The notes under the pieces were generated by a model, which had not been told where the DNA came from, did not search any database, and saw only the letters and a program-made list of their open reading frames with translations. Shown here piece after piece: positions 2,123 through 32,939 of a stretch of 39,082 nucleotides of DNA. This stretch comes from Candidatus Beckwithbacteria bacterium (GTDB taxonomy: Bacteria; Patescibacteriota; Microgenomatia; UBA1400; CG1-02-47-37). Made by a program: the position numbers and the translations under genes. The stretch's first letter is position 1; every line of letters starts with the position of its first letter. The stretch is from assembly GCA_043826085.1 (NCBI GenBank), contig JBDRQW010000110.1, positions 1 through 39,082 of the forward strand. The letters are read 5' to 3'.

Positions 2123-2658
2123 GAAAATGGATTGTCAATTGCTTCGAGCTTGCCTTCTTTGTTGGCTTTGTAAAGTGGTTCGCCGGATTTTTTAATATGG
2201 TCGATGAAGAGAATACCGTTTAGGTGGTCAAGTTCGTGGGCAAAGTAGGAGGAGAAGGGTGAGGCGAGGGAGATCTTTTTTTCTAAACCTTTTAGATTCA
2301 AGTACTTAGCTTTTATTTTTATTGGGCGGTCAACAAAACCAAAGTAGCCCGGGATTGAGAGGCAGCCCTCAATAAATTGTTTATCTTTTGGCAAGCTGGA
2401 GAGCATTTTTTTTGAAGATTTAATGATTTGGGGGTTAAGACAAACTTCAAATTTATCATCAGGCATTTTAATAATAAATAGACGATGAAGTTGATTGACC
2501 TGATTGGTGGCTAATCCCACACCCAGTTCTTTTTTTTGCTCCGGAGTGAGAGTGCTTAGCATTTGCTTGGCTAATTTTTTAATATCGTCAGTTATATGAT
2601 TAATAGTCAAAGCTTTTTTTCTAAGGGTGGGGTGGGGGTGTTTTATTATTTTTAACAT
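2119..2658 (-). CDS. def: Peptide deformylase
   Basis: The EGCLSIPG and HELDHLNG motifs are present, and the gene sits in a def-fmt pair. Confidence 0.9.
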   Translation of the reverse strand: MLKIIKHPHPTLRKKALTINHITDDIKKLAKQMLSTLTPEQKKELGVGLATNQVNQLHRLFIIKMPDDKFEVCLNPQIIKSSKKMLSSLPKDKQFIEGCLSIPGYFGFVDRPIKIKAKYLNLKGLEKKISLASPFSSYFAHELDHLNGILFIDHIKKSGEPLYKANKEGKLEAIDNPFS

Positions 2659-2665
2659 GAGGGCA

Positions 2666-4825
2666 TTATAACAGGCTGTTGAGTTTTTCTTTAATAGCTT
2701 GGTTTTCGGGGTTTAAGTATTTGAGGATGTATTCAAATTGTTCGCTGGCAAGGTCGGGACGGTTGGTTTGTTGATAGAGTGAACCTAGGGCATTTCTGAA
2801 GGTTTCGTAATTGGGTTTTAAATTTATAGTTTCAAGCAGTGTTTGTTCGGCAAGTTTGGTTTGTCCCAGTTGGGTGTAAAGTAATCCTAAATTGTAATGC
2901 AATTTGGGGTCGGTTGGAGAGAGATCAATAGCTTTAAGTAAAGTATTAAGAGCGTCTTGGTGATATTTTTTATCAATTTGAGCTAAAAGAAAAAATACTT
3001 TGGCACGAGATTTATAGTAGTTTAAATGAACTTTGTTTTGGGATATAACCAGGTTGCTATTATTAATAGATTCCTCTATTAGTTGACCTTTTAGATTAGT
3101 ATCTTCTTGATAAAGTAAAGCCATTTTGGCTGCAGATTCTGAGTAAAGGGATCTAAAGAGAGGTTGGTTTGGTTTTATGGTAACTGCTTTTTGAAGGTAA
3201 GCGTAGCCGGTTTGAATTTGATTGGCTTGTAAATAGTTTTTGCCAAGAACAAAAGCTCGGTCAGCTTGCCACATAGTGATGATGGAGTATAAAAAGAAGG
3301 TGGCGAGGGAGAGGGTGATTAAAATTTTTATTAAGGTGACACCTTCCAGCTTCGCTGTTCCGACTCGAGATTCTCTCGCGTCTCCTGTTAAGGTGTCACC
3401 TTTGGTCATGTTGTGGCTAATAGCCAGGGCAGGGAAGAGAAAGAAAAATAAAGCCACGGGGACGACGGAGAAGCCAAAAAAGTTGGAGACGGCTAGGCCT
3501 AAGTAGCCGGCCAAGAGGGCTATATATAAACTATCACACGATCGTGAGCGGAAATATATACGGAGAGTCCAAATTGAAAACCAGATGATAATCAGCAAGT
3601 AAGAGAATAAACCAAAAGCTCCGGTGGTAGCTAAGAAGTTTAAAAATTCGTTATGAGCTTTGTTGTAAAGAAAGTCCCATTCCGAGAGAAGATTATGTTC
3701 AACCGGCCGGTGATTATAGTAGGAGTAGGCAAAGGTTTCTACGCCGGAGCCGAAAATCGGATATTTTTCCCAAATATTTATAGCTCCCTGCCAAACCACT
3801 TTTCTAATATCACTGGATTTTGAACCGCCGGTTTGGATGGTGGGAGGGCCAAGATCGGAAACTTCAGGGAGACTCCTTGAAGTTTCTTCAGGTTCGGAAC
3901 TATCTTTCAGTCGCTGTGCTCCTTGCAGACCGCTGAAAGTTCCGAACCCTATCTTTGAAGTTCGGAACCATGGATTACTCCAGGGGGTACCGATGATTAA
4001 TATTGCAAGTAGAAATAGGAAATTAATGGTTAGGAAAGGCTTTACAGGAAAGCTTTTTAGCTTATTTTTGAGTAATATTAGTAACCAGTAAATACTCCAA
4101 GCTAAACCTAAGCCAAGTAAGCCGGAGCGGGATTTAGTAAACAAAAGGGTGATAAAAAAAGTTAGGGTAACAAGGTGGTATTTTGGATTTTTTAGAGAGA
4201 GGCTGAGTGAGATAGGAATTAGGGTTAAAAGGTAGGCTGCTAACCAGTTTGGTTGGCCCAGGGTAGAGAAAACTCTGGTTTGAACGTCTTGGACCCAGAG
4301 ATTTTTGTCGATGCCAAAGTGTTCAAGAATGCCGTAGATAGAGACGATTAGAGCAGTTGATAAAATAACTTTGATTATTCTATTGTTAAATTCATTAGGT
4401 TCGGAACTAGAACATCGGAAAGTTCCGAACCCTACATAAGTAAAATATAGGAGTAAATAGGAGATGGTGGAGATGAGGCCACCGTGGAATCTTGAGTAAT
4501 AACCCCAGAGAGATGTATGCGGGTCTATTGAGAATAAAGTGGAGAGAGTTTGGGAGATTAGAAAGATGATTAGAGGTATGGTAAATGGAGTTTTTTGAAA
4601 AATTATTTTTTGATTAATAATCATTTTGATTATCCAAGCCGAGGTAATAATTACAGTTATAAAATAAACCGTAAGCATTTTGTTAAACTCAAAGAGCTCG
4701 TAGTTATAGGGAGTGAGGATTAAAGGTACGATGATGAATAGAGCGTAGAAGGAGTACTCGATGATTTTGTTAAGGAGTTTGTTCATGAAGTCAGTATAGC
4801 ATGGGAATGTGATATAGTAAGACAT
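2666..4825 (-). CDS. O-antigen ligase/polymerase-like polytopic membrane protein with C-terminal TPR repeats
   Basis: Many hydrophobic helices, a Wzy_C-like central region and C-terminal TPR-like repeats (NLGLLYTQLGQTKLAEQTLLETINLKPNY). The true start may be the ATG at 4786 (MNKLLNKIIEYSF). The ORF hosts several palindromic modules. Confidence 0.65.
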   Translation of the reverse strand: MSYYITFPCYTDFMNKLLNKIIEYSFYALFIIVPLILTPYNYELFEFNKMLTVYFITVIITSAWIIKMIINQKIIFQKTPFTIPLIIFLISQTLSTLFSIDPHTSLWGYYSRFHGGLISTISYLLLYFTYVGFGTFRCSSSEPNEFNNRIIKVILSTALIVSIYGILEHFGIDKNLWVQDVQTRVFSTLGQPNWLAAYLLTLIPISLSLSLKNPKYHLVTLTFFITLLFTKSRSGLLGLGLAWSIYWLLILLKNKLKSFPVKPFLTINFLFLLAILIIGTPWSNPWFRTSKIGFGTFSGLQGAQRLKDSSEPEETSRSLPEVSDLGPPTIQTGGSKSSDIRKVVWQGAINIWEKYPIFGSGVETFAYSYYNHRPVEHNLLSEWDFLYNKAHNEFLNFLATTGAFGLFSYLLIIIWFSIWTLRIYFRSRSCDSLYIALLAGYLGLAVSNFFGFSVVPVALFFFLFPALAISHNMTKGDTLTGDARESRVGTAKLEGVTLIKILITLSLATFFLYSIITMWQADRAFVLGKNYLQANQIQTGYAYLQKAVTIKPNQPLFRSLYSESAAKMALLYQEDTNLKGQLIEESINNSNLVISQNKVHLNYYKSRAKVFFLLAQIDKKYHQDALNTLLKAIDLSPTDPKLHYNLGLLYTQLGQTKLAEQTLLETINLKPNYETFRNALGSLYQQTNRPDLASEQFEYILKYLNPENQAIKEKLNSLL
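3333..3402. repeat. Family G module: AAGGTGACACCTT (3333-3345) and AAGGTGTCACCTT (3390-3402)
   Basis: Two mutually complementary 13-bp palindromes separated by 44 nt. The module is read through as KGDTLTGDARESRVGTAKLEGVTL. Confidence 0.7.
3521..3560. repeat. Family E palindromic element (core CACGATCGTG between TATATA-type arms) inside a CDS
   Basis: TATATATAAACTATCACACGATCGTGAGCGGAAATATATA is translated as YFRSRSCDSLYI. Related copies lie at 8712-8750 and 9527-9564. Confidence 0.7.
3849..3970. repeat. Composite block of nested hairpins (family C GGTTCGGAAC/GTTCCGAACC arms plus a family D-like half-site) inside a CDS
   Basis: CCAAGATCGGAAACTT at 3849-3864; near-perfect palindrome AACTTCAGGGAG-A-CTCCTTGAAGTT at 3860-3884; long hairpin GGTTCGGAACT...AGTTCCGAACC at 3891-3948; a further GTTCGGAAC at 3960-3968. 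The block is read as FRTSKIGFGTFSGLQGAQRLKDSSEPEETSRSLPEVSDLGPP. Confidence 0.75.
4398..4431. repeat. Family C hairpin GGTTCGGAACT-(12 nt)-AGTTCCGAACC inside a CDS
   Basis: 11-bp perfect arms, translated as GFGTFRCSSSEP. This is the same frame and the same flanking peptide (GFGTF...SSEP) as the copy at 3891-3948. Confidence 0.8.
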
Positions 4826-5872
4826 ATGTTAGATAGGTTTTATTCGTTATTTAGTTATGATCTGGGAATTGATCTTGGGACTTCTAATACTTTAATTTTA
4901 GTTAAAGGCAAGGGTGTAGTGGTAAGAGAGCCATCTGTAGTAGCCAGAAGAAAGAAGACTAAAGAAATTTTGGCAGTAGGTGGTAAAGCCAAACAAATGA
5001 TTGGTAAAAATCCTGATAGCATTGAAGTGATTAAGCCATTGATTGATGGAGTTATTTCTGACTTTGATGCGACTGTGTCAATGCTTAAACATTACTTTGT
5101 TGAAATTCATCAACATGTAGGTTTAGCCCCAAAATTAGCTAGACCAAAAGTTTTAGTGGGAATACCTTCCGGCGTAACTGAAGTTGAAAAAAGAGCGGTT
5201 CAAGATGCGGCTTTGTCTGCGGGAGCTAGGATGGCCATGTTGATTGAGGAGCCAATGGCTGCTGTTATTGGGGCCGGGGTTGATGTTTCTAAACCCGATG
5301 GACAGTTAATTGTTGATATTGGTGGTGGCACGACCGAGATTGCAGTTATTAGTTTGGGCGGGATTGTAATTGATAGATCTTTGCGGATTGCCGGTGAAGA
5401 GATGAATGAGGCTATAATTAAATCAGCTAGGTTGAGGCATGGATTGCTTTTGGGTGAGATTACTGCTGAGGAAGTAAAAATTAATATTGGGAGTGCGATG
5501 GAAATGGAGAAAGAAAAAAGTTTTGTGGTTCGGGGGCGGGATATGGAGAAGGGTTTGCCAAAGTCTTTAAAAATTAAGAGTTCAGAAGTAAGAGAGTCTT
5601 TGGCTCCGGTGATTCAAGAAATTGTAGGAGCGATTGGTTACATCATTGAAGAAACGCCGCCGGAGTTGGTGGCTGATATTATGAAACACGGGATTATTTT
5701 AGCTGGTGGAGGTTCCTTGATTTATGGAATTGATAAAGTAATTTCACAAGCTACCAAGATGCCGGTTTGGATAGCTGATGATCCGCAAGACGCGGTGGTT
5801 AAAGGTTGTGGTAATTTATTCAAGAATGAAAAATTATTAAATGCCGTTAGAGTTAAACGAGGGCTTAGATGA
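4826..5872 (+). CDS. mreB: Rod shape-determining actin-like protein MreB
   Basis: DLGIDLGTSNTLI, IVDIGGGTTEIAVIS and ILAGGGSL are actin-fold ATPase motifs. Confidence 0.95.
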   Translation: MLDRFYSLFSYDLGIDLGTSNTLILVKGKGVVVREPSVVARRKKTKEILAVGGKAKQMIGKNPDSIEVIKPLIDGVISDFDATVSMLKHYFVEIHQHVGLAPKLARPKVLVGIPSGVTEVEKRAVQDAALSAGARMAMLIEEPMAAVIGAGVDVSKPDGQLIVDIGGGTTEIAVISLGGIVIDRSLRIAGEEMNEAIIKSARLRHGLLLGEITAEEVKINIGSAMEMEKEKSFVVRGRDMEKGLPKSLKIKSSEVRESLAPVIQEIVGAIGYIIEETPPELVADIMKHGIILAGGGSLIYGIDKVISQATKMPVWIADDPQDAVVKGCGNLFKNEKLLNAVRVKRGLR

Positions 5873-7195: not shown

Positions 7196-8692
7196 ATGAA
7201 AAAGATAAGTTATTATTATTTGGTTTTGTTAGTAACTTTTTTAGTTTTAACGGCGAGATTGGTAATGTTACAAGTATTTGAAGGTGAGTACTATAGAAAA
7301 CTAGCGGTTGAGAATCGGGTTAGTTTGGAAGTAATTAAAGCTAATCGGGGGGTGATGTACGATCGATTTGGGGAAGTTTTGGTAAGGAATTCTCCCGGAG
7401 GTCGAGAGTATGTTTTTGGTGAGACTTTAAGTCATGTCTTGGGTTATGTGGGTGAGGTTAATGAAGAGGAAATTGAAATTTCAGGTTATGAATTAAAAGA
7501 TGTAGTGGGTAAAATGGGTTTGGAGAAACAGTATGATTTAGAATTGCGGGGAGTCAATGGAGGAGTCTTGATTGAGAAAAATGCCGATGGCCAAAAGATT
7601 CGAGAGATTGGCAGAAAAGAACCAATGGATGGAGAGAGTTTAACTTTAAGTATTGATTTTGGTTTGCAAAAAAAGGCCTATGAGTTGATGGATAGTCGGA
7701 AGGGAGCGGTGATCGCCAGTGTGCCGGAAACCGGAGAAATATTGGCTTTGGTGAGTAGTCCGGGATTTAATTTTGAAAAAATAGAAGAGGCTTTGAGTAA
7801 TAAAGACCTACCTTTGTTTAATAGAGCAATTGGAGGCGAGTATCCTCCCGGATCGGTTTTTAAGATTGTAGTAGCTACTGCCGGGCTTGAAGAAAATAAG
7901 ATAGATGCTGAGACTGAAATTGAAGATACCGGGGAAATCAGAGTGGGTCTGTTTCGGTTTGGAAACTGGTACTTTGATCAGTATGGTAAAAAAGAGGGAA
8001 TGATTGGTTTGGTTCGAGCCATTGCCAGGAGTAATGATGTCTTTTTTTATAAATTGGGAGAGGCTTTGGGAATTGAGAAGTTAGCTGACTGGGCCAAGTA
8101 TTTTGGTTTAGGCAGGGTAACTAAAATTGATTTACCCGGTGAAGCTAATGGTTTGATACCCACTCCGGAGTGGAAACAGGAGTTTATTGGTGAGAGCTGG
8201 TATTTGGGGGATACTTATATTTCAAGTATTGGCCAGGGAAATGTTTTGATGACCCCGCTTCAGGTAAATCAAATGACTAGTGTGATTGCTTCAGGTGGCA
8301 AGTTGTGCCAGCCGTATTTAAGGGCGAAGCCCTTACAGGGCCTCGCCCTTCCAAGATGTCAGAAGTTGGATATTAGTGAGGAAAGCCTGGATTTGGTGAC
8401 TGAAGGAATGAAGCAAGTAGCTGAGAGTGGGGGGACAGCTTGGCCGTTTTTTGATTTTAAGGTAAAGGGGGAGCGGGTTTTTGTGGCAGCCAAAACCGGA
8501 ACAGCTGAGTTTGGGGAGGTGGGGGCAAGTGATATTAAAGAAGGCAAAACCCATGCTTGGTTTACTGCATTTGCGCCAATTGAAAAACCAAACATTGTGG
8601 TGACGGTGTTAATGGAGGCAGGGGGTGAGGGGTCTGATCAGGCAGCTCCGGTGGCTAGAGATTTATTAAGTTATTGGTTTTCAAGACAATAA
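7196..8692 (+). CDS. mrdA: Penicillin-binding protein 2 (elongasome transpeptidase)
   Basis: N-terminal TM helix, SxxK (GSVFKIV), SSIGQG and KTGTAE motifs. GLIPTPEWKQEF resembles the conserved PBP2 segment. Confidence 0.9.
   Translation: MKKISYYYLVLLVTFLVLTARLVMLQVFEGEYYRKLAVENRVSLEVIKANRGVMYDRFGEVLVRNSPGGREYVFGETLSHVLGYVGEVNEEEIEISGYELKDVVGKMGLEKQYDLELRGVNGGVLIEKNADGQKIREIGRKEPMDGESLTLSIDFGLQKKAYELMDSRKGAVIASVPETGEILALVSSPGFNFEKIEEALSNKDLPLFNRAIGGEYPPGSVFKIVVATAGLEENKIDAETEIEDTGEIRVGLFRFGNWYFDQYGKKEGMIGLVRAIARSNDVFFYKLGEALGIEKLADWAKYFGLGRVTKIDLPGEANGLIPTPEWKQEFIGESWYLGDTYISSIGQGNVLMTPLQVNQMTSVIASGGKLCQPYLRAKPLQGLALPRCQKLDISEESLDLVTEGMKQVAESGGTAWPFFDFKVKGERVFVAAKTGTAEFGEVGASDIKEGKTHAWFTAFAPIEKPNIVVTVLMEAGGEGSDQAAPVARDLLSYWFSRQ
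8160..8173. repeat. 14-bp palindrome CCACTCCGGAGTGG (core of family F) inside mrdA
   Basis: Identical to the core of the 22-bp intergenic palindrome of the TA array. Here it encodes the conserved PTPEW. Confidence 0.6.
8320..8350. repeat. Family A hairpin AAGGGCGAAGCCC-TTACA-GGGCCTCGCCCTT inside mrdA
   Basis: Reverse complement of the 2005-2035 element with one substitution, translated as RAKPLQGLALP. This is a different frame from the fmt copy. Confidence 0.85.
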
Positions 8693-8711: not shown

Positions 8712-8750
8712 TATATAAATTAAATCACGATCGTGTTGTCGATTATATAT
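8712..8750. repeat. Family E palindromic element (intergenic)
   Basis: TATATAAATTAAATCACGATCGTGTTGTCGATTATATAT lies immediately upstream of, and overlaps, the ATG at 8749. Confidence 0.7.
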
Positions 8751-9531
8751 GAAACAAAGAGAAGTAGTTAAGGAGATATCAGCTGGATTAATAGTAACCG
8801 GGGTTGATTTTGTTTTGTTTACGGCGTCTTTGGGTTTAAATTTGTATACAGCCAGCTTTAAGCCAAAAAATCCAATTGAGGTATTGATTGATAGTTTTAA
8901 ACTAACCGGTTATTTTCAAAATAAATTATTAAAATCCAGTTGTGCTTATGCGAAACAAAAAGGCTATCTAAAAAAAGTTAAACAAGAGTTAAAAATAACT
9001 AAATCGGGCTTAAAGAGACTTGACAGTTTGTTACCAGTTTATCAAAAAAAGCGAAAGTGGAACGGGAGATTAAACCTAATTACTTATGATATTTCTGAAA
9101 AACATAGACATAAAAGAGAAATATTGGCTAAATGGCTAAAGAGCCAAAATGCGATTATGTTGCAAAAAAGTGTTTGGGTATCGGTTTTTGACTTATCTAA
9201 AAATTTAAATAAATATAAGAATCAATTTTTATTAAAAGACCAAGGAGTAATTTTAACCTCTGAGTTAAAAAAGGGAGAAGGGGTTAACGAAAGAACTATT
9301 AGTGAATTAATTGAAGATTGGTATCAATTATCTGCATTAAATTTAAGGTATGATAATTTTATTTCTTGGGTGAAAATGGAAAAAAGATTTGGAATACAAG
9401 ATAAAATGATTTTACAAATGAGATATTTATCGATTTTAAAAGATGATCCTCAATTGCCGTTTGGTATTTTGCCAAAAAATTGGAAAGGAGATCAAGCTTA
9501 TAAATTATATAAGAATAAACTTGACGTATAA
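8749..9531 (+). CDS. PaaX-family-like protein (Cas2-like fold plus PaaX_C-like tail)
   Basis: WNGRLNLITYDISEKHRHKREILAKWLKSQNAIMLQKSVWVS and the C-terminal DDPQLPFGILPKNWKGDQAYKLY resemble the PaaX C-terminal region. The ORF is flanked by family E palindromes. Confidence 0.5.
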   Translation: MKQREVVKEISAGLIVTGVDFVLFTASLGLNLYTASFKPKNPIEVLIDSFKLTGYFQNKLLKSSCAYAKQKGYLKKVKQELKITKSGLKRLDSLLPVYQKKRKWNGRLNLITYDISEKHRHKREILAKWLKSQNAIMLQKSVWVSVFDLSKNLNKYKNQFLLKDQGVILTSELKKGEGVNERTISELIEDWYQLSALNLRYDNFISWVKMEKRFGIQDKMILQMRYLSILKDDPQLPFGILPKNWKGDQAYKLYKNKLDV

Positions 9532-9564
9532 ACTACATCACGATCGTGTGCTAGTTTATATATA
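9527..9564. repeat. Family E palindromic element (intergenic)
   Basis: TATAAACTACATCACGATCGTGTGCTAGTTTATATATA has arms TATAAACTA/TAGTTTATA and overlaps the stop codon at 9529-9531. Confidence 0.75.
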
Positions 9565-15473: not shown

Positions 15474-16130
15474 TTAGGTGTGATCGATTAAGGTTTTATT
15501 TGAGAGAATATCACTATTTATGCTTTTAATACCATCTAAAGTAAATTGCCAGAAAGAATCGGTTGATTTAAAGTGAGATTTAATATCTTTAGTTTGGCAA
15601 AAGCCTTGTCTTTTATTTAAGTATTCTGGTAGGCTGCTCCAGAGATAATTTTTTAGTTGAGTAGCATTGAGTGGATTGTATTTAAGGTTAGCCGGATTGG
15701 TGTGGATATAACGAGTAAGGTGAATTAATTGTTCTTGAATATCTATGTTAACTTTTTTATATTTTGATTCAAAGAGTCGCCCGCTTCTTGTATATTTTTT
15801 GTTAAAAAAAGTTGTGTAGCTGTTGCCTAATCGTTGAGCAAATTTGGATAATTCTTCTTTTGAATTTGATTTAACTATTATGTGGTAGTGATTACTCATT
15901 AAACAATATGCGTGTATCTCAGCAATGTAGGGGCCATATAGTTTTTCAAGTTGGGTAGATCCTAATGCTTCAAACTGTTCATTTCTTGTTTTTCTTTCCA
16001 TGTCAGAAATTTTTGGGGAGTTTAATAGAAGAGAATTATGAATGGCGAGGAGAAATCTTTGCTTATCGTTAATATCTTGAAATATATTTCGCTTGTCAAC
16101 TCCGCGATTGTAAATGTGATAAAAAGCCAT
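15474..16130 (-). CDS. IS200/IS605-type Y1 (HUH) transposase-like protein, RAYT-like
   Basis: YHIYNRGVDKRNIF, HUH-type motif YCLMSNHYHIIV, TGRLFESKYK-like SGRLFESKYKK, and the tyrosine helix LTRYIHTNP. Confidence 0.7.
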   Translation of the reverse strand: MAFYHIYNRGVDKRNIFQDINDKQRFLLAIHNSLLLNSPKISDMERKTRNEQFEALGSTQLEKLYGPYIAEIHAYCLMSNHYHIIVKSNSKEELSKFAQRLGNSYTTFFNKKYTRSGRLFESKYKKVNIDIQEQLIHLTRYIHTNPANLKYNPLNATQLKNYLWSSLPEYLNKRQGFCQTKDIKSHFKSTDSFWQFTLDGIKSINSDILSNKTLIDHT

Positions 16131-16141
16131 GATTTAGTATA

Positions 16142-16160
16142 ACACACATCAGATGTGTGT
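16142..16160. repeat. Palindrome ACACACATC-A-GATGTGTGT next to the RAYT-like gene start
   Basis: 9-bp perfect arms, 12 nt upstream of the minus-strand ATG at 16130. It is the only copy in the window. Confidence 0.6.
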
Positions 16161-23680: not shown

Positions 23681-24568
23681 ATGATGATTTTTTCAGGTTC
23701 TTCAAATATATTGTTGGCCAAGAGCTTAAGTAAGGTTAGCGGTTTTAAGTTGGGGAAGATAGAGCTGTCAAGGTTTGCAAATGACGAGTCCAGGGTGTGG
23801 GTGAGAGAAAAATTAGATAATAAACAAGCGATGGTCGTCCAGTCATTATCATCTCCGACTGATCATAATTTGGTGGAGTTTTGTTTGATTTGTGATGCTT
23901 TAATCAGAATGGGGGTTAAGGAAATTACGGCGGTGATTCCCTGGTTGGGTTATAGCAAGCAAGATAAAGTGTTTAGAGAGGGTGAGCCTTTAAGTGTAAA
24001 AGTAATAGCCAAGATGTTACAGACAGTTCCTTTAGAAAAAATTATTACTTTTGATTTGCATAACTTATCTATTTTGGGATTTTTTGAAGTGCCGGTAATT
24101 AATTTGTCAGCTAGGGGATTACTGGAAGATTATTTTTTAAAGACAATTACTAAAGATACAATTGTAGTGGCTCCGGATGCGGGAGCCATTAAGTCGTCGA
24201 CTGCTTTTGCTCACAAGTTGGGCATAGATGTAGTTTATGTGGATAAAAAAAGAGATTTAAAAACAGGCAAGGTGAAAATTTTTGGGATTAGTGGGCAAGT
24301 AAAAAATAAGCAAGCGATTATTATTGATGATATGATAGCTACCGGTGGTACTTTGATAAAAACGGCTGATTTTTTAAAGAAAAAAGGAGCTTGTTCAATT
24401 AAAGTGGGAGCGACTCATCATTTGTATGTTGGGGGGGTTCAGGAAAAGCTGGATAAAAGTGTGATTGATGAAGTAGTGGTGACGGATACGGTAGAACCGA
24501 GGCTAAAGTCGAGCAAGTTAAAAGTTTTGAGTGTTGCCGAAATGATAGTGAAGGAAATTGGTGGTTAA
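23681..24568 (+). CDS. prs: Ribose-phosphate pyrophosphokinase
   Basis: RFANDESRV, the GYSKQDK-like LGYSKQDKV, and the PRPP loop IIIDDMIATGGT. Confidence 0.9.
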   Translation: MMIFSGSSNILLAKSLSKVSGFKLGKIELSRFANDESRVWVREKLDNKQAMVVQSLSSPTDHNLVEFCLICDALIRMGVKEITAVIPWLGYSKQDKVFREGEPLSVKVIAKMLQTVPLEKIITFDLHNLSILGFFEVPVINLSARGLLEDYFLKTITKDTIVVAPDAGAIKSSTAFAHKLGIDVVYVDKKRDLKTGKVKIFGISGQVKNKQAIIIDDMIATGGTLIKTADFLKKKGACSIKVGATHHLYVGGVQEKLDKSVIDEVVVTDTVEPRLKSSKLKVLSVAEMIVKEIGG

Positions 24569-24570
24569 AT

Positions 24571-24593
24571 ATTCCAAGTTCCGATCTTGGAAT
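24571..24593. repeat. Family D REP-like palindrome ATTCCAAG-TTCCGAT-CTTGGAAT
   Basis: 8-bp arms with a 7-nt loop, located between the prs stop codon and the RAYT-like stop codon. Confidence 0.85.
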
Positions 24594-25217
24594 TTAGTCT
24601 ATAATTAATGATTTAATTTTTTCGATATTTGCTTCTGAAATAGGTGAGTTGAAGAATTGATAATAATTATCAACCTTTTCAGTAATATATTGGGGATAAA
24701 GCCAGTTTAGTGTCTTTGTTGCTTTTAAAAAGATAGAAAGAGAAGAGTGAGTGGTTTGGTGTTTGTGAATATATTTGGAAAGATAAATGAGTTGTTCTGA
24801 AGAATCTACAGTGACACATTTAAATTTTCCTTCGAATAGTGAACCGGTATGTTTGTACTTATTTCGAAAATGAATTGAGTAGGCAACGATTAAACGTCTT
24901 ATTAAGTTAGAGATATTAGTTTTTTCGGTGGCTGTTGGTAGTTGTTTTAGAAGTAGGTGATAATGGTTGGGCATTTGACAATAAGCCACTAAATGGACTG
25001 TAGGCTCTTTTTCCAAGTTCCGATCTTGGAATTTATTGACCTTTTTTTGGTAGGCAAAATGTCTGGTTCTTGGGAACTTTAGATAATAGGCGAGAATTTC
25101 AGTAAAAATATGATAGTCTTCTTTATCTTTATAAATCTTGTGCCTATAAGAGCCACGATTAAAAACATGATAGAAATGTTGAGGCTTAAAGTTTCGGGTG
25201 TAATATTTGCTGGGCAT
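24594..25217 (-). CDS. IS200/IS605-type Y1 (HUH) transposase-like protein, RAYT-like
   Basis: YHVFNRGSYRHKIY, YCQMPNHYHLLL, TGSLFEGKFK and LSKYIHKH. It is a paralog of the ORF at 15474-16130. Confidence 0.65.
   Translation of the reverse strand: MPSKYYTRNFKPQHFYHVFNRGSYRHKIYKDKEDYHIFTEILAYYLKFPRTRHFAYQKKVNKFQDRNLEKEPTVHLVAYCQMPNHYHLLLKQLPTATEKTNISNLIRRLIVAYSIHFRNKYKHTGSLFEGKFKCVTVDSSEQLIYLSKYIHKHQTTHSSLSIFLKATKTLNWLYPQYITEKVDNYYQFFNSPISEANIEKIKSLIID
25010..25032. repeat. Family D palindrome copy inside the RAYT-like ORF
   Basis: TTTCCAAGTTCCGATCTTGGAAT matches 22 of 23 positions and is translated in frame as FQDRNLE. Confidence 0.8.
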
Positions 25218-25250
25218 TGATTATTAATATATCATATTATAAATATAAAT

Positions 25251-25273
25251 ATTCCAAGATCGGAACTTGGAAT
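25251..25273. repeat. Family D palindrome, inverted orientation (ATTCCAAGATCGGAACTTGGAAT)
   Basis: Exact reverse complement of the 24571-24593 copy. Confidence 0.85.
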
Positions 25274-25274
25274 A

Positions 25275-25328
25275 TTGACAGTTTGCATTATTTTGTTATA
25301 GAATAATGTAAATATAAATTACATTATT
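25275..25328 (+). promoter_or_regulatory. Promoter TTGACA-16-TGtTATAGA plus 10-bp inverted repeat operator AATAATGTAA/TTACATTATT
   Basis: TTGACA at 25275-25280, TG plus TATAGA at 25294-25302, and the inverted repeat at 25302-25311/25319-25328, directly before the antitoxin ATG at 25330. Confidence 0.45.
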
Positions 25329-25329
25329 T

Positions 25330-25572
25330 ATGCAACAAATAGTTTCTATTACCAGTCAGGGCCAAGTAACTATTCCGGTGTCAGTGAGGAGGGCTTTTGG
25401 GATCAAGGGATCGGCAAAAGCATCTTTAAGAAAAAGAGGAGAAGAAATAGTGATAAAACCTGAAAAAGATTTTTGGAGTTTATCTGGGGGAATGAAATCA
25501 AAAATTAAACTAACAGATAAGCAGTTAAGAGATGCCAGAAAAGCTTTTGAAACTGATTGGGCTGAAGAATGA
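25330..25572 (+). CDS. AbrB/SpoVT-family antitoxin (VapB-like)
   Basis: QVTIPVSVRRAFGIK is a swapped-hairpin AbrB motif. There is a 4-nt overlap with the PIN gene. Confidence 0.7.
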   Translation: MQQIVSITSQGQVTIPVSVRRAFGIKGSAKASLRKRGEEIVIKPEKDFWSLSGGMKSKIKLTDKQLRDARKAFETDWAEE

Positions 25573-25949
25573 GAGAGGAATTATTAGATACTAATATTAT
25601 AACTAGATTTTTTATTGGAGATGTAAAAGCTCAACATAACAAGGCTGAGGAAATATTTAGAGAAGCAAAGTTGGGAAGAAGAAATTTAAGATTAGAATCT
25701 TTAGTGGTAGCTGAAGTTTGTTTTGTTCTTGAATCTTTTTACAAGAGAGAGAGACAAGAGATTGCCCAGTTTTTAAGTGTTTTTTCTAGTCAAGGGTGGT
25801 TAAGGGTAAGAGATAAAAATATTATTCAAGCTAGTTGGCAATGGTATCTAAAAGGTTTTCATTTTGTGGATAGTTACTTGATTGCTTGGAGCAAGGTCAA
25901 TAAAGGGAAAATATTAACTTTTGATAAGAAATTGAGTAAAATGGCTTGA
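25569..25949 (+). CDS. PIN-domain toxin (VapC-like)
   Basis: LLDTNIITRFF (first acidic residue), VVAEV and FVDSYL, with a size typical of VapC. Confidence 0.75.
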   Translation: MREELLDTNIITRFFIGDVKAQHNKAEEIFREAKLGRRNLRLESLVVAEVCFVLESFYKRERQEIAQFLSVFSSQGWLRVRDKNIIQASWQWYLKGFHFVDSYLIAWSKVNKGKILTFDKKLSKMA

Positions 25950-27916: not shown

Positions 27917-28186
27917 ATGACTAAATTACAGATAACTTTGACTAATCAGGAGGCTTTATTGCTTGGTTATGGGGCTTCAAATTTAGGGTATTCTTTGACT
28001 AGATTTGTTAAGTTTGTTCTTGGACAGAAAGCAGTTGAATGCGATCATGAAGTTCCTACTTTTAAAATGAGTAAAAAGACAGAAAAAAATGTTGAAGAGG
28101 CCATGAATGATTATAAGGCAGGCAGGACTGTGAGTGTCGATATTGATAAATTAGGCGAGTATTTTGAAAATGATAAAAAAAATTGA
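27917..28186 (+). CDS. Putative antitoxin (RHH-like) of a RelE/ParE-type pair
   Basis: Small ORF that overlaps the downstream toxin-like ORF. TTGACT at 27881-27886 and TAAATT at 27903-27908 lie upstream. Confidence 0.45.
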   Translation: MTKLQITLTNQEALLLGYGASNLGYSLTRFVKFVLGQKAVECDHEVPTFKMSKKTEKNVEEAMNDYKAGRTVSVDIDKLGEYFENDKKN

Positions 28187-28439
28187 ACTAAATGGTCGTT
28201 GTGAAAGAAAGCTAGCAAAAATTTATAAAAAAGATAAAAGATTATTTGGGAAAATTGAAGAGACTTTTAAGTTGTTTAAAGAAAACCCGGAATATTCCAG
28301 CTTGAAACTTCATAAGATTGGTGGAAAAAAATATCAGATTTGGAGCATATTTGTAAAAAAAGATTTTAGAATTTTATTTGAGTATGTGAAGAATGGAATA
28401 TTGGTGACTGACATTGGTAGCCATGATGAGGTATATTAG
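28170..28439 (+). CDS. RelE/ParE-superfamily toxin-like protein
   Basis: YSSLKLHKIGGKKYQIWSIFVKKDFRILFEYVKNGILVTDIGSHDEVY fits the RelE/StbE C-terminal pattern. I chose the ATG at 28170; the track start at 28164 is a TTG. Confidence 0.55.
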   Translation: MIKKIELNGRCERKLAKIYKKDKRLFGKIEETFKLFKENPEYSSLKLHKIGGKKYQIWSIFVKKDFRILFEYVKNGILVTDIGSHDEVY

Positions 28440-29544: not shown

Positions 29545-30135
29545 ATGAATAAATTGGCTGAATTGCAAAAAACCAGAAGAAGAGTATTTACTGCTCAGGA
29601 TTTAGGTGTTTTATGGAACTATAAAGATTCAAGAAAGTTGTATGAATTAATAAAGTATTATGTTAATAATAAACAGATATATAGATTGTCAAAAGGATTG
29701 TATAGTTTAGATGAGTATGATAAAGACAGCTTGAGCTTAGATAGTAATTTGTTGTTTGAGGTAGCCAATAAATTGGTAAGAAATTCATATATTTCTTTAT
29801 TTACTGCTTTGAAATTTTATGGAGTGGTATTTCAGTATTATGGCGAGATATATTCTGTATCAAACAAGCCGGCGGTAAAATCGATAAAAGGGATACGATT
29901 TGTTTATAAAAAAATTAAGGATGATGTTTTGTTTAATGATATTGGGATTATTAAAAAGGGTTTAGCGAGAATCGCAGGGGTAGAAAGATCTATTTGTGAT
30001 AGTTTATATTTTTTCCCTAAATTAGGTTTGGAGCATGTTGAGAGAGTGAAAAAAGATAAAATAATGAAAGTGGTGGAGATTTACAATAATCAAGAGTTAA
30101 AAAAAAGAGTTAAAAAGTTAATGGAAGGAAAATAA
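29545..30135 (+). CDS. AbiEi-family antitoxin (winged-helix)
   Basis: VFTAQDLGVL...IYRLSKGLYSL wHTH pattern, with a 1-nt overlap with the AbiEii gene. The track start at 29503 is the TTG of the -35 box. Confidence 0.6.
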   Translation: MNKLAELQKTRRRVFTAQDLGVLWNYKDSRKLYELIKYYVNNKQIYRLSKGLYSLDEYDKDSLSLDSNLLFEVANKLVRNSYISLFTALKFYGVVFQYYGEIYSVSNKPAVKSIKGIRFVYKKIKDDVLFNDIGIIKKGLARIAGVERSICDSLYFFPKLGLEHVERVKKDKIMKVVEIYNNQELKKRVKKLMEGK

Positions 30136-30824
30136 TGTTAAATCTTGGTAAACATAAGCAAGTTTTAAGTAAGATTTTAATTAATTTAGTTGAAGAAAAA
30201 AGTGTTGTTTCAAGCTTAGGGTTTAAAGGAGGAACCGCTTTGTTCTTATTTTATGGTTTAGATAGATTTTCAACTGACCTGGATTTTGATTTGATTCAAG
30301 GTAAGCGTGGTAGCGGTAGTTTAGACATAGAATTAATTAATAAAGCAATAGAAAAGAATTTGAAAGTTATTGATAAGAGGGAAAAAAGAAATACATTGTT
30401 TTGGGTGGGAAGTTATCAAAAAGGTATGCAAAAAGTAAAAGTAGAGATTAATTTAAGAAAATTTCCAAATAAATATGAAGTTAAAAATTTTCGCGGTTAC
30501 TCAGTTTTGGTAATGAAACCCGAGTTTATGCTTGCTCATAAATTATGTGCGGTTTTAGATAGGAAGAATTTACAAAATCGTGATTTGTATGATGTATGGT
30601 TTATGTTTGAAAAAGATTTTTTGATTAATAAAGAAATAATAAAATTAAGAACAGGACAAACAGTTAAAGAATATTTTAAAAGTTTATTAAAGTTAGTTAA
30701 TAGTTTAGCTAGGGATTATGATATTTTGAATGGGTTGGGAGAAGTGCTGAGTGAGCCAAAAAAGGATTGGGTTAAGTCTAAGCTGTTGAGTGAATTAAGA
30801 GCTCAACTGTCAAGTAGGTTATAG
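30135..30824 (+). CDS. AbiEii/AbiGii-family nucleotidyltransferase toxin (DUF1814)
   Basis: GFKGGTALFLFYGLDRFSTDLDFD is the family's N-terminal NTase motif. Confidence 0.8.
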   Translation: MLNLGKHKQVLSKILINLVEEKSVVSSLGFKGGTALFLFYGLDRFSTDLDFDLIQGKRGSGSLDIELINKAIEKNLKVIDKREKRNTLFWVGSYQKGMQKVKVEINLRKFPNKYEVKNFRGYSVLVMKPEFMLAHKLCAVLDRKNLQNRDLYDVWFMFEKDFLINKEIIKLRTGQTVKEYFKSLLKLVNSLARDYDILNGLGEVLSEPKKDWVKSKLLSELRAQLSSRL

Positions 30825-30837
30825 ATTCTTTGATAAT

Positions 30838-30857
30838 ATTCCGATCCGGAGCGGAAT
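30838..30857. repeat. Family F variant palindrome ATTCCGATCCGGAGCGGAAT
   Basis: Lies 13 nt after the AbiEii stop codon. It shares the TCCGGA centre and ATT/AAT ends with family F. Confidence 0.7.
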
Positions 30858-30934
30858 AAGATTTTTAGGTTGAAGAAGACCCGTTTGTTTATGAGATTAA
30901 TAAAACGGGTGTAGCGAATTTAATTAGGAAACAG
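30858..30934 (+). pseudogene. Relic 3-prime end of a nucleotidyltransferase gene (paralog of 32069-32392)
   Basis: 30858-30956 aligns with 32329-32425. The relic reads DF*VEEDPFVYEINKTGVANL against the intact KDFKVEEDPFAYEINKTGVVI*. It has no upstream ORF and contains an in-frame stop. Confidence 0.65.
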
Positions 30935-30956
30935 ATTACCACTCCGGAGTGGTAAT
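30935..30956. repeat. Family F palindrome ATTACCACTCCGGAGTGGTAAT
   Basis: Perfect 22-bp palindrome, copy 1. Confidence 0.9.
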
Positions 30957-30959
30957 AAT

Positions 30960-30981
30960 ATTACCGTTCCGGAACGGTAAT
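30960..30981. repeat. Family F variant ATTACCGTTCCGGAACGGTAAT
   Basis: Perfect 22-bp palindrome in tandem with copy 1, with compensatory changes in both arms. Confidence 0.9.
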
Positions 30982-31001
30982 GTGAGGGATGTAGGGTTTC
31001 G

Positions 31002-31010
31002 TGCTATAAT
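31002..31010 (+). promoter_or_regulatory. Extended -10 TGcTATAAT, 7 nt before the mntA ATG
   Basis: The hexamer is at 31005-31010 and the ATG at 31017. The same GTTTCGTGCTATAATT box recurs at 31683-31698. Confidence 0.55.
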
Positions 31011-31016
31011 TTACTC

Positions 31017-31316
31017 ATGATTCCTACTTTAATAAAAACACATCAAAAATCTCTTGAAGAGATTGCTAAAGCCAATGATATTTCCTATTTGGCTTTATTT
31101 GGCTCTCATGCTCGCGGTGAACAAGTAAAAGATAGTGATGTGGATTTTTTGGTTGATTTTGAAAAACCAATTGATTTTTTTGAGCTTTATGATATTGAAC
31201 AAAATTTTTCAAACCTTTTAGGTAGAAAAATCGATCTTGTTACTATTAAAGGTCTTAGTAAACATATCAAGCCTTATATTCAAAATGACCTCAAGGTTAT
31301 TTATGAAACAACCTAA
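31017..31316 (+). CDS. mntA: MntA-type minimal nucleotidyltransferase antitoxin
   Basis: LFGSHARGEQVKDSDVDFLVDF is a GSxxRGx...DxD NTase motif. Confidence 0.8.
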   Translation: MIPTLIKTHQKSLEEIAKANDISYLALFGSHARGEQVKDSDVDFLVDFEKPIDFFELYDIEQNFSNLLGRKIDLVTIKGLSKHIKPYIQNDLKVIYETT

Positions 31317-31638
31317 TCCATATTTAAGTCATATCATCGAATCTTTTGATAAAATCGATATACTTCTTCATGGTTTTACTAAAGAAAAATTTGTTAAAGA
31401 TGAGCGTACTCAATTAGCAATTATTAAACTTTTAGAAATAATTGGCGAGGCCTGCGTTCATCTTAAAATTGATTTTTATAAAAGCCATCCAGAAATTCCT
31501 TGGGCTAAAATTATTTCTATGCGTAATCGATTAACTCATGAATATTGGGAAATTGATCTAGACATTGTGTGGAAAACTGTCAAAGAACGGGTTCCTGAAT
31601 TAAGAAAACAACTAGAATCGCTAGTTAAGTTAAATTAG
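31303..31638 (+). CDS. hepT: HepT-type HEPN (DUF86) toxin
   Basis: RNRLTHEYWEIDLDIVW carries the Rx4HxY motif. I chose the ATG at 31303, which overlaps mntA by 14 nt. Confidence 0.8.
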   Translation: MKQPNPYLSHIIESFDKIDILLHGFTKEKFVKDERTQLAIIKLLEIIGEACVHLKIDFYKSHPEIPWAKIISMRNRLTHEYWEIDLDIVWKTVKERVPELRKQLESLVKLN

Positions 31639-31645
31639 AAATAAT

Positions 31646-31667
31646 ATTACCACTCCGGAGTGGTAAT
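31646..31667. repeat. Family F palindrome ATTACCACTCCGGAGTGGTAAT
   Basis: Perfect copy, 7 nt after the hepT stop codon. Confidence 0.9.
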
Positions 31668-31687
31668 ATAGTGTATATAGGATTTCG

Positions 31688-31696
31688 TGCTATAAT
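31688..31696 (+). promoter_or_regulatory. Extended -10 TGcTATAAT, 8 nt before the HEPN gene ATG
   Basis: The hexamer is at 31691-31696 and the ATG at 31704. Confidence 0.55.
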
Positions 31697-31703
31697 TGGT
31701 TAC

Positions 31704-32099
31704 ATGAATATCAAAAAACTTCAAAATTATTGGTTTGATGGTTATAAAGATGCTTTATTGACAGCGGAAAAACTTTACGAGGCTAAAAGATATCATCATT
31801 GTTTGTTTTTTGGCCATTTAGCTTTGGAGAAATTACTTAAAGCGGTAGTAGTTAATAAAATAAAGACTCATGCTACGCCCACTCATGATTTAGTCAAATT
31901 AGTAAAAGCTACCAATATTGAAATTTCAGCGGAGATTTTAGATGATTTAGCTGAAATAAATAAATTTAATATTAATGCTAGATATGATAGTTATAAATTA
32001 GCTTTTTATAAAACCGCTACAAAAGAATATACGATTATTTGGAGATTAAAAATTAAAAAAATTTCTATATGGCTCAAGTCAAAATTAAACCAGAAATAA
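31704..32099 (+). CDS. HEPN-domain protein (PF05168-like)
   Basis: AEKLYEAKRYHHCLFFGHLALEKLLKA...PTHDLVKL is a HEPN pattern. I chose the ATG at 31704; the track start is a GTG inside the promoter box. Confidence 0.7.
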   Translation: MNIKKLQNYWFDGYKDALLTAEKLYEAKRYHHCLFFGHLALEKLLKAVVVNKIKTHATPTHDLVKLVKATNIEISAEILDDLAEINKFNINARYDSYKLAFYKTATKEYTIIWRLKIKKISIWLKSKLNQK

Positions 32100-32392
32100 G
32101 AAAAATAGTTCTTAATTATAAAAAAGCTTTGGAATTGGCGGGTTTGAAACAAAGTCAAGTGATTTTGTTTGGTTCTTATGCAAAAGGCACTGATAAGCCA
32201 TTTAGTGATATTGATATTTGTGTGGTTTCGTCTCAATTTGGGCAAGATGAAATGGGTGAATCGGTAAAATTGAAAACAATTTCAGTGCCGGTGGACATTA
32301 GGATTGAGCCTCATCCATATTCGGTGAAAGATTTTAAGGTTGAAGAAGATCCGTTTGCTTATGAAATTAATAAAACAGGGGTAGTGATTTAA
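32069..32392 (+). CDS. Minimal nucleotidyltransferase partner of the HEPN protein
   Basis: ILFGSYAKGTDKPFSDIDICVVS motif. It overlaps the HEPN gene by 31 nt. Confidence 0.75.
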   Translation: MAQVKIKPEIRKIVLNYKKALELAGLKQSQVILFGSYAKGTDKPFSDIDICVVSSQFGQDEMGESVKLKTISVPVDIRIEPHPYSVKDFKVEEDPFAYEINKTGVVI

Positions 32393-32403
32393 TTAGAAAA
32401 CAC

Positions 32404-32473
32404 ATTACCACTCCGGAGTGGTAATATAGGGGATGTATATAGATTACACATGTTGTTTTTATATAAATATGGT
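32404..32473. repeat. 70-bp module: family F palindrome (32404-32425), ATGTATA/TACACAT hairpin and an A/T-rich box
   Basis: 68 of 70 positions are identical to 32914-32983. Confidence 0.85.
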
Positions 32474-32515
32474 TTTGAAGATAGTGGATTATTGTAGTAT
32501 AATTTATTGTATATT

Positions 32516-32803
32516 ATGAAAAGATCTAGTAATCATCATCATATTTTAAGTTACCGAGTCATTATTGAACCTGAAAAAGTAAAACAAAAGACTATATATA
32601 ATGTTTATTGTCCGACTTTAGGGTTAGTTGATTATGGAAACAGTTTACAGGGGGCGTTAAGGCGAATGAAAAAATTAATGAAATTTCATTTAGAATGTTT
32701 GATTGATGAGAGTAAAACAGTACCCGCTCTTGATAAAGATGAGTCTTTTGTTGGAATGACATCGGTGAATATATCTGGTAGGTCAAGTTTTGCTTTTGGT
32801 TAA
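32516..32803 (+). CDS. hicB: HicB-like antitoxin (N-terminal UPF0150-type domain)
   Basis: YRVIIEPEK...YNVYCPTLGLVDYGNSLQGALRRMKKLMKFHLE fits the HicB N-terminal domain pattern. A TATAAT lies at 32498-32503. Confidence 0.5.
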   Translation: MKRSSNHHHILSYRVIIEPEKVKQKTIYNVYCPTLGLVDYGNSLQGALRRMKKLMKFHLECLIDESKTVPALDKDESFVGMTSVNISGRSSFAFG

Positions 32804-32939
32804 TGAATATGGCAAAATTGCCGACTGTTAAAGGCAGGGAACAATGCGGGCAATATTAAGACAGATTGATATTTCGGTTGAAGATTTTGTAAAATTTTTA
32901 AGAAAGAGGAAATATTACCACTCCGGAGTGGTAATATAG
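32803..32939 (+). pseudogene. hicA: Decayed hicA (internal deletion plus frameshift)
   Basis: A TAATG overlap with hicB gives MNMAKLPTVKGREQCGQY* (HicA N-terminus, LP.V.G.E). In another frame, 32844-32939 reads RAILRQIDISVEDFVKFLRK (HicA C-terminus). The central GSH/His-containing part is missing. Confidence 0.5.

Follow-up and report, generated by a model that had tools for sequence, protein, structure and literature searches.

What allows a gene for a conserved membrane protein to hold several palindromic DNA elements and still remain open from end to end? The question is posed by a 39,082-nucleotide stretch of Candidatus Beckwithbacteria bacterium (contig JBDRQW010000110.1, assembly GCA_043826085.1; Patescibacteriota, UBA1400), hereafter the window, in which the O-antigen-ligase-like gene wzy (2666-4825, minus strand) contains four such modules. 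A preliminary description drawn from the letters of the sequence had located all four, and their coordinates, given below, were confirmed. We judge it fairly probable that the modules are single-stranded DNA (ssDNA) elements akin to repetitive extragenic palindromes (REPs) and to the hairpin-forming REP doublets (REPINs), that they have colonised coding DNA with the behaviour of Rickettsia palindromic elements (RPEs), and that HUH enzymes of the REP-associated tyrosine transposase (RAYT) or IS200 type are their likely movers.

The host gene is intact and carries the modules in variable loops

The frame at 2666-4825 runs through 719 codons with no interruption, just as the preliminary description held, and specifies a protein with a Wzy_C (O-antigen-ligase-like) membrane domain and, C-terminal to it, a tetratricopeptide repeat (TPR) part (Pfam). 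It has 6070 homologs, the nearest of which are syntenic orthologs. Since the identical NCBI protein model (P0001) has 706 aa, starting 13 codons inside the frame, and the orthologs begin MNKLLN, the true start is probably M14, with its ATG at 4786; the initial 13 codons (4786-4825) are likely untranslated. We compared six close orthologs at the DNA level, all of them in an mreB-wzy-def-fmt context, aligned 20 proteins, and extended the comparison of peptides to 120 orthologs. More than 150 alignment columns are invariant over the 20 proteins, and the window protein keeps all the family-invariant residues; the gene is therefore under constraint and is not the pseudogene that the preliminary description had named as an alternative to insertion. 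Palindromic repeats can confuse assemblers, but the architecture recurs in independent NCBI, ENA, JGI and Logan assemblies, and with the open reading frame (ORF) intact and the invariant residues in place we give an assembly artefact or a decaying pseudogene practically no chance.

In the 20-protein alignment, three hypervariable loops house the G, composite and C modules, and the E module lies at a short break between helices. An AlphaFold2 model of the window protein, with an overall predicted local distance difference test score (pLDDT) of 74, drops below 50 at exactly aa 137-143, 282-335 and 465-492, which are the insert-bearing loops, so the ortholog alignment proposed in the preliminary description puts the modules into predicted-disordered segments and one inter-helix break. 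A PDB sequence search with the protein returned TPR matches and one weak oligosaccharyltransferase match only; the topology of the loops therefore relies on hydropathy and the positive-inside rule, by which the large Wzy_C loop, loop 2, would be extracytoplasmic and loops 1 and 3 and the E site would face the cytoplasm. Across the 120 orthologs, the window loops exceed the median by 8-21 residues, and insert peptides occur in only ~10, the closest ones.

The module of loop 3 (3333-3402, minus strand; aa ~473-496) is a family G element of 70 nt. Its perfect 13-nt arms (3333-3345/3390-3402) pair as a 13-bp stem, P1, and between them follow the junction AACAGGA, a P2 hairpin with a conserved unpaired A, the junction GGAA and the P3 hairpin CAGC-GAA-GCTG, up to the closing strand P1'. 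This copy scores 94 bits against our covariance model (R1), folds as ssDNA at -20.9 kcal/mol (z -7 against shuffles) and would be translated in loop 3 as KGDTLTGDARESRVGTAKLEGVTL. Loop 2 holds the composite (3849-3970, minus strand; nested hairpins, fold z -5.3), made of a hairpin at 3858-3886 that contains the P1-like AAGGAGTCTCC, a C-type doublet whose spacer is structured (3891-3948), and, at 3959-3969, a solo C half-site. The family C doublet of loop 1 (4398-4431, minus strand; fold z ~-5) has the form GGTTCGGAACT-12 nt-AGTTCCGAACC and reads as GFGTFRCSSSEP. Among the related loci that we collected (numbered L001 onwards), the spacer subfamily of the composite is seen again in L024 and L029 on the identical, C-rich strand, and that of the 4398-4431 doublet in L013 and L036 in the identical strand orientation. 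The two C copies share one frame and give GFGTF...SSEP, and antisense ORFs at 3240-3506 and 3837-4091 overlie G and the composite, both as first described. From the open frames, the insert-derived peptides GFGTF[R/S]..SSEP, GDTLTGDARESRVGTAK and PACAGR are expected.

Family E (3521-3560; aa ~424-436, between transmembrane helices) is a palindrome of the form TATATAAAC..CACGATCGTG..TATATA, identified as a sequence family. It adds 4 aa to the protein; the same site has an E-like palindrome in L001 and is empty in five other orthologs. All modules had been called GC-rich islands, which does not apply to E: its GC content is 0.30 against 0.39 gene-wide and its fold is no better than that of shuffles (z -0.8/+0.4), so that it is AT-rich with no stable hairpin. 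It is a genuine sequence family despite the weak fold, and CACGATCGTG with TATATA arms at fixed distance occurs 3 times against 0 expected, the further copies in the window lying at 8712-8749 and 9527-9560. The claim that each module has relatives elsewhere in the window thus stands for E; it fails for G, of which a covariance-model search of the window found the single copy, and C recurs inside wzy only, its closest likenesses elsewhere in the window being GTTCCGATC hairpins around 24594-25217.

Inverted repeats are in excess over the gene as a whole. There are 6 GC-containing inverted-repeat axes in wzy against 0.87 expected (maximum 5 in 200 shuffles) and 27 against 11 expected in the entire window, and GGTTCGGAAC occurs 8 times against 1.1 expected.

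Module positions differ among orthologs

Codon alignments place the G copies of orthologous wzy genes at different sites: loop 3 in the window, loops 2 and 3 in L003, and loop 1 in L008. C-type hairpins occupy loops 1, 2 and 3 and the N-terminus in varying combinations. Two reading frames are used for the G unit, giving GDTLTG..VGTAKLEGVT or GRTVLNRRPE..SRDSEAGRTVL. Moreover, the window copy shares 96% identity with G copies from unrelated ORFs (L019, L027) and only ~86% with the same-loop wzy copies of L003, L005 and L007, whose P1 core and frame differ. This makes loop 3 a hot spot, as opposed to the site of an inherited insertion.

Two further modules lie in the fmt gene of the same cluster, in addition to the four of wzy. 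One is a perfect 18-nt palindrome, CCTGCCTGCGCAGGCAGG (1484-1501), a six-codon insertion (PACAGR) that the window and L001 have and L003 and L005 lack, the insertion being exact and without duplication. Identical 18-mers are nested inside the loops of other elements, including the P3 loop of a G copy in L016 and hairpins in L019 and L036; G copies in turn are found within another family, H. The second fmt module, AAGGGCGAGGCCCT-tac-AGGGCCTCGCCCTT (2005-2035), is a hairpin where the gene encodes the N-terminal portion of the protein; its site in L003 and L005 has a wholly different, fully compensated stem, AAGGGTCACACCCT instead of AAGGGCGAGGCCCT. Judged from these comparisons, the wzy modules and the fmt 18-mer are best read as insertions and not as ancestral sequence. 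The insertion interpretation would have suffered had orthologs carried the same peptides in DNA that is not palindromic; the syntenic orthologs that share the segments also have palindromic DNA, which favours insertion.

Could the inserts be selected protein modules, for example loops that diversifying selection keeps variable in an envelope enzyme, with the palindromy of the DNA as a secondary trait? Their confinement mainly to three loops, one of them probably extracytoplasmic, would fit, as would the fact that every close ortholog differs in loop content. Against this, one DNA unit yields unrelated peptides from different frames and both strands, copies are also present between genes and in genes for cytoplasmic enzymes, fmt among them, and the peptides are predicted to be disordered. 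We regard this explanation as improbable.

Family G is a dispersed 70-nt unit with DNA-level constraint

To find relatives of G, its conserved interior was scanned in species-representative genomes and metagenome contigs, and a covariance model was then applied. This gave 46 matches at ~35 non-redundant sites, with at least 13 in one metagenome-assembled genome, that of ortholog P0002. A scan of viral contigs with the G core gave 0 matches, and there is therefore no sign of a phage vector for G. The 70-nt unit begins with P1 (13 bp, invariant AAGG...CCTT ends and a variable core), followed by AACAGGA; P2 consists of GAC, a mismatch partner, a 5-bp variable stem, a loop that is mostly GAA, the conserved unpaired A and GTC, and is followed by GGGA; P3 is CAGC-GAA-GCTG or CGGC-GAA-GCCG, after which come a G and P1'. 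The hairpin loops are GAA triloops, including GCGAAGC.

Standard pairs make up 98% of the G stems and 9 pairs are changed on both sides, values that no shuffle attains. Only 3 of ~810 pairs among 32 distinct copies are G·T, and 94% of the unpaired positions are purines; the near absence of G·T and the purine-rich unpaired bases therefore indicate a constraint at the DNA rather than the RNA level. A comparison of G·T with A·C comes to 3 vs 3 once the conserved unpaired A is excluded, and favours neither strand as the functional one.

These features bear directly on whether G is a functional structured RNA, such as a cis-regulator that sequesters a Shine-Dalgarno sequence in P1, a ribozyme or a removed intervening sequence. 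The three-stem fold, the invariant junctions and the covarying stems would be expected of one. In addition, P1' often reads AAGGAG followed by A/T-TG-R-A, resembling a ribosome-binding site with a start codon, and one copy lies immediately 5' of a wzy ATG (L003 4646-4735). However, a scan of 2600-4900 against Rfam 15 at E<=10 gave chance-level matches only, none overlapping G or the other modules, G·U pairs are virtually absent, copies sit deep inside ORFs on either strand relative to the host genes with frames open, and their orientation follows the chromosome strand, not transcription. We hold an RNA function to be very improbable.

Of 38 G copies, about 20 are buried deep within long open frames, irrespective of whether the host gene shares their strand, and in every such case the host frame stays open. 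The remaining copies include ~8 intergenic ones and a few that either sit at the end of an ORF or immediately precede a start codon. When the G-encoded peptides were joined into a 71-aa concatenate and compared with a 5.8-billion-protein database, 28 word candidates were obtained, none with E<=1. A G copy also occurs in a protein of 401-417 aa whose C-terminal domain is a cytidylyltransferase (L014, L020, L022, L025, L028, L034, L039). The contigs concerned have a weaker skew and a GC content of 0.43-0.46, and one is binned as 'Pseudomonadales'; G on these contigs reflects either misbinning or a wider host range.

For family C, the related loci (291 kb of partial genomes) contain 81 occurrences of the arm core, GTTCSGAAC, against 0.75 expected, and 65% of the cores are deep in long open frames, compared with 61% of random positions, so coding DNA is not avoided.

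A palindrome at 8160-8173, CCACTCCGGAGTGG, was considered as an insertion and rejected, since it sits in conserved codons of PBP2 (PTPEWK). Orthologs have AATCCGGATT (NPDW) at this site; the N/T and D/E changes covary and the palindrome is kept.

Such covariation is what would be expected if local template switching perfected palindromes where ssDNA is long-lived, with the likeness between copies due to convergence or gene conversion and not to transposition. The almost purely Watson-Crick stems with multi-base compensated differences, and the fully compensated fmt N-terminal stems of the orthologs, point the same way. Template-switch perfection probably contributes to stem complementarity and is the only explanation for the PBP2 palindrome. 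Nevertheless, it leaves unexplained the near-invariant unpaired junctions and the 70-nt unit repeated at 86-96% identity at ~35 unrelated sites in several genomes, the identical 18-mers in unrelated contexts and the hairpin-bracketed Y1 genes described below; as an account of the elements themselves we find it unlikely.

The elements are locked to one chromosome strand

The window has a GC skew of ~+0.37 on the plus strand throughout, whichever strand the genes occupy, and in the window and all related loci the absolute skew is 0.3-0.45, independent of gene strand. Kadnikov et al. (2020) described a chromosome-wide C-rich strand in UBA1400 Microgenomates, proposed unidirectional replication and reported their genome to be without mobile elements (PMC7143001); the use of skew as a marker of replication direction is taken from that work.

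We found 45 of the 46 G matches on the C-rich strand in one orientation, the exception lying at a skew of +0.03, and this orientation is independent of the strand of the host ORF. Other families with asymmetric spacers gave orientation counts of 8/0 (C-mini), 0/3 (Cb), 3/0 (Cc) and 13/0 (H). For C the orientation was scored by spacers and not by arms; the central base of the arms was tried as an orientation mark and dropped, as reverse complementation leaves both the G...C and the C...G type as they are. Because the unpaired bases of G are purine-rich while lying on the C-rich strand, the strand lock is not compositional drift.

The flanks of the 35 non-redundant G sites show no target-site duplication (TSD), and a 6-nt sequence, RWTGRA, is conserved on one side only, 3' of P1'. 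This one-sided flank and the orientation bias together correspond to the strand-specific insertion of IS200/IS605-type elements. They also bear on the mechanism usually assumed for RPE-like repeats, in which the modules would be classical double-stranded MITEs (inverted-repeat transposable elements of miniature size) with terminal inverted repeats (TIRs) and a DDE transposase, tolerant of coding insertion. G does have 13-bp TIRs with invariant AAGG/CCTT ends, and in-frame MITEs are known in several bacteria (PMC10969869). Yet TSDs are absent and a single flank is conserved, the orientation is fixed to one chromosome strand, which double-stranded cut-and-paste does not predict, the window encodes two Y1/HUH genes and no DDE transposase, and a search of the related DNA for a longer, autonomous element that ends as G does (based on its unpaired left or right ends) found none. 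We consider MITEs a quite unlikely explanation.

Two Y1/HUH transposase homologs lie in the window

The two transposase homologs of the window, like the strand lock, had been overlooked in the preliminary description. Homolog no. 2 (24594-25217, minus strand; 207 aa) is an IS200-like, RAYT-like Y1/HUH protein that scores 37.8 bits against PF01797 (cutoff 23) and 22.8 bits, under the cutoff, against NF047646 (REP_Tyr_transpos). Its motifs are FYHVFNRG, NHYH and YIHKHQ. It has 132 homologs of ~210-225 aa, all from Patescibacteria and diverged about as far as housekeeping genes; some are named transposase or REP-associated tyrosine transposase, and most have YIHxNP. Homolog no. 1 (15474-16130, minus strand; 218 aa) scores 35.6 bits against PF01797 and 41 bits (E 1.7e-10, under cutoff) against NF047646, with the motifs FYHIYNRG, NHYH and YIHTNP, the last giving the Y---NP context of TnpA_REP class 2. 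The two homologs are 33% identical. Both have the Y1 and HUH signatures with the catalytic Tyr that characterise the enzymes of REP-RAYT systems and score above the PF01797 gathering score.

Homolog no. 2 is bracketed by copies of one hairpin. Directly downstream lies the REP-like AATATTCCAAG-TTCCGAT-CTTGGAATTTA (24568-24596), upstream an inverted copy with the loop ATCGGAA (25248-25276), each with 0 expected, and a third copy is inside the coding sequence (CDS) at codons ~63-70 (25011-25031). In five further genomes this layout recurs with lineage-specific, fully compensated stems: L040, L041 and L042 have upstream, internal and downstream copies, L043 has the upstream and downstream copies, and L044 the upstream and internal ones only. 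This is the REPtron arrangement, a gene flanked by cognate palindromes. In L040, whose genome also contains ortholog L005, and likewise in L041, the apex of the hairpin is GGTTCCGAACC / GTTCCGAAC, which equals the family C arm. For homolog no. 1 a single hairpin was found, ACACACATC-A-GATGTGTGT (16142-16160), just upstream of the gene and unique in the window; the gene itself is missing from the syntenic site in L001 and L007. A tblastn search of the fetched related loci with both Y1 proteins matched the window itself only, and no Y1 gene is therefore tied to G.

Some further observations concern these genes. The enzyme's own flanking hairpin lies within the CDS at the same codons (~63-72) in the window, L040, L041, L042 and L044. 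In L043 (98-3157), from another Patescibacteria genome, the hairpin-bracketed Y1 homolog adjoins a Wzy_C/TPR gene. A MazE/PIN pair (25330-25949) is directly beside homolog no. 2, and a ParE/RelE-like toxin (28164-28439) is preceded by an overlapping small ORF (27917-28186) with no Pfam match.

Other palindromes and islands of the window

The two intergenic E palindromes (8712-8749 and 9527-9560) flank one plus-strand gene, 8749-9531, with PaaX_M/PaaX_C (Cas2-like) domains. As PBP2 and dprA are directly adjacent in L001, L003, L005 and L007, the E-gene-E unit is an insertion of ~880 bp, and E may be the operator of the PaaX-type regulator or the ends of the cassette. A toxin-antitoxin island at 30135-32937 (GC 0.29-0.31) contains AbiEii, two MNT/HEPN-type pairs and a HicB-like protein. 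One perfect palindrome, ATTACCACTCCGGAGTGGTAAT, recurs between its cassettes, at 30935, 31644, 32404 and 32912, and a variant, ATTACCGTTCCGGAACGGTAAT, lies at 30960.

Discussion

If the modules are REP/REPIN-like, they would represent several families of small, non-autonomous, hairpin-forming mobile DNA, each element being two near-identical short palindromes inverted around a spacer, or the solo footprint of one. Copies would land in, or replace one another within, the loop-coding parts of genes and not just intergenic DNA; those whose length and frame leave the ORF open would survive and then be translated as disordered loop peptides. Propagation would most likely proceed via ssDNA, strand-specifically and linked to replication, with Y1/HUH (RAYT/IS200-like) enzymes such as the two of the window as likely catalysts. 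Pre-existing hairpins would be the preferred targets, so that a few loops become hot spots. We put forward more tentatively, as a possibility short of even confidence, that in UBA1400-type members of the candidate phyla radiation (CPR) resident RAYT-like HUH enzymes drive several one-orientation REPIN-like families which insert freely into coding DNA, on a chromosome whose strands are asymmetric from end to end and which is perhaps unidirectionally replicated.

Several observations weigh against the REP/REPIN-like interpretation. G, E and the 18-mer are linked to no Y1 gene, so any pairing of these families with an enzyme would be conjectural. The hairpin that flanks the window transposase has GTTCCGATC and not the GTTCCGAAC of the wzy copies, and this variant was found at the window transposase gene and once in L040 only. 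In homolog no. 2 His-Gln follows the catalytic Tyr, where most relatives have Asn-Pro, and both homologs stay under the NCBIfam RAYT cutoff, though their matches are significant. REPs are defined as extragenic and are mostly tagged with GT[AG]G, neither of which fits here. No filled/empty polymorphism was seen between near-identical strains, so that recent movement is not demonstrated, and divergence blurs most of the wzy insertion boundaries. The translation of the inserts is deduced from open frames alone. Finally, template-switch 'quasipalindrome correction' could yield perfect complementarity without transposition, and one palindrome, that in the conserved codons at 8160-8173, did not arise by insertion.

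Protein-coding palindromes have hitherto been treated as a Rickettsia peculiarity with no known mover, and REPs and REPINs as strictly extragenic; this locus joins both. It offers REPIN-like doublets in frame in conserved genes of a minimal genome, with candidate HUH enzymes nearby, and thereby a testable model for the origin of new protein loops in small genomes. The orientation rule points to single-strand, replication-coupled movement. For the unusual replication and strand asymmetry of this clade of CPR bacteria, the locus provides evidence of a second kind. If the more tentative proposal above is right, the elements would be a major ongoing source of loop indels in essential proteins and the first RPE-like protein-coding palindromes tied to an identifiable enzyme and mechanism. 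There is also a warning for annotation, as copies of such elements may lie behind loops of low confidence that are rich in indels, and behind spurious antisense ORFs, in CPR gene calls. The preliminary description had supposed that the phenomenon was new for such genomes, and our full-text searches gave no paper linking these elements, RPEs, MITEs or RAYTs to CPR/Patescibacteria.

One parallel is offered by fungal and algal mitochondrial DNA, whose mobile GC clusters and double-hairpin elements are GC-richer palindromic mini-elements in an AT-rich, strongly strand-asymmetric genome. They can sit in a coding frame, as does the optional in-frame GC cluster of yeast var1, and nest mutually. They belong to another domain of life and have other sequences, and to our knowledge no HUH enzyme has been implicated in them.

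Among bacterial systems, the IS200/IS605 elements and their non-autonomous derivatives, the palindrome-associated transposable elements (PATEs), share with ours a Y1-HUH enzyme, one-strand hairpin recognition, the lack of TSD, a one-sided target flank and a replication-coupled orientation (PMC6006769). IS200/IS605 enzymes use the lagging-strand template as substrate (PMC6006769, PMC3337134). IS200/IS605 elements differ in that their ends are subterminal hairpins and not mutually complementary termini, and in that their transposase is multi-copy and carried inside the element, whereas the Y1 genes here look resident. The ORF-fusing MITEs (ERIC, BOX, QMITE1 of Coxiella and the Anabaena MITEs) are also small non-autonomous repeats that sometimes form in-frame fusions (PMC10969869). 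They have TIR/TSD signatures and are mostly intergenic; our elements lack TSD, are strand locked and are predominantly intragenic.

The preliminary description had likened the modules to RPEs, and at the level of behaviour the likeness holds. In the account of Ogata's work (2000/2002) available through PMC10969869, RPEs are in-frame palindromic repeats of many families, found in unrelated genes and giving rise to surface or loop portions of the proteins that the fold can accommodate. The elements described here are likewise in-frame, loop-located, multi-family palindromic repeats. RPEs are set apart by a length of ~100-150 bp, compared with 18-76 nt here, by a host of another phylum, and by having no known transposase and no reported strand lock; candidate Y1 enzymes are present here.

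The nearest mechanistic counterpart is the REP/REPIN-RAYT system, in which pairs are recognised by a hairpin-bracketed Y1 gene and a one-gene-one-palindrome association, and in which REPINs consist of two REPs set in inverted order on either side of a spacer, fold into a hairpin as ssDNA and leave solo palindromes upon excision (PMC6006769, PMC3337134). Our elements differ in lying in coding DNA as often as random positions and being read in frame, in the conserved, structured, purine-rich interior of G and in the strict one-strand orientation. An extra hairpin inside the transposase CDS, a CPR host and proteins under the NCBIfam RAYT cutoff also set them apart, as does the lack of a GT[AG]G tag in G, C and the transposase-flanking hairpins, a lack shared by RAYT subclasses 2.6 and 3 (PMC6006769). 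We have filed them outside the REP family because they are not extragenic and have no such tag. What they have in common with REP/REPIN-RAYT systems is the inverted doublets around a spacer, folding as ssDNA into one long hairpin, with solo palindromes alongside, the presence of several families per genome, and a ~200-aa Y1/HUH gene that is bracketed by its own hairpins, conserved within its clade at housekeeping-like divergence and not multi-copy (PMC3337134, PMC6006769).

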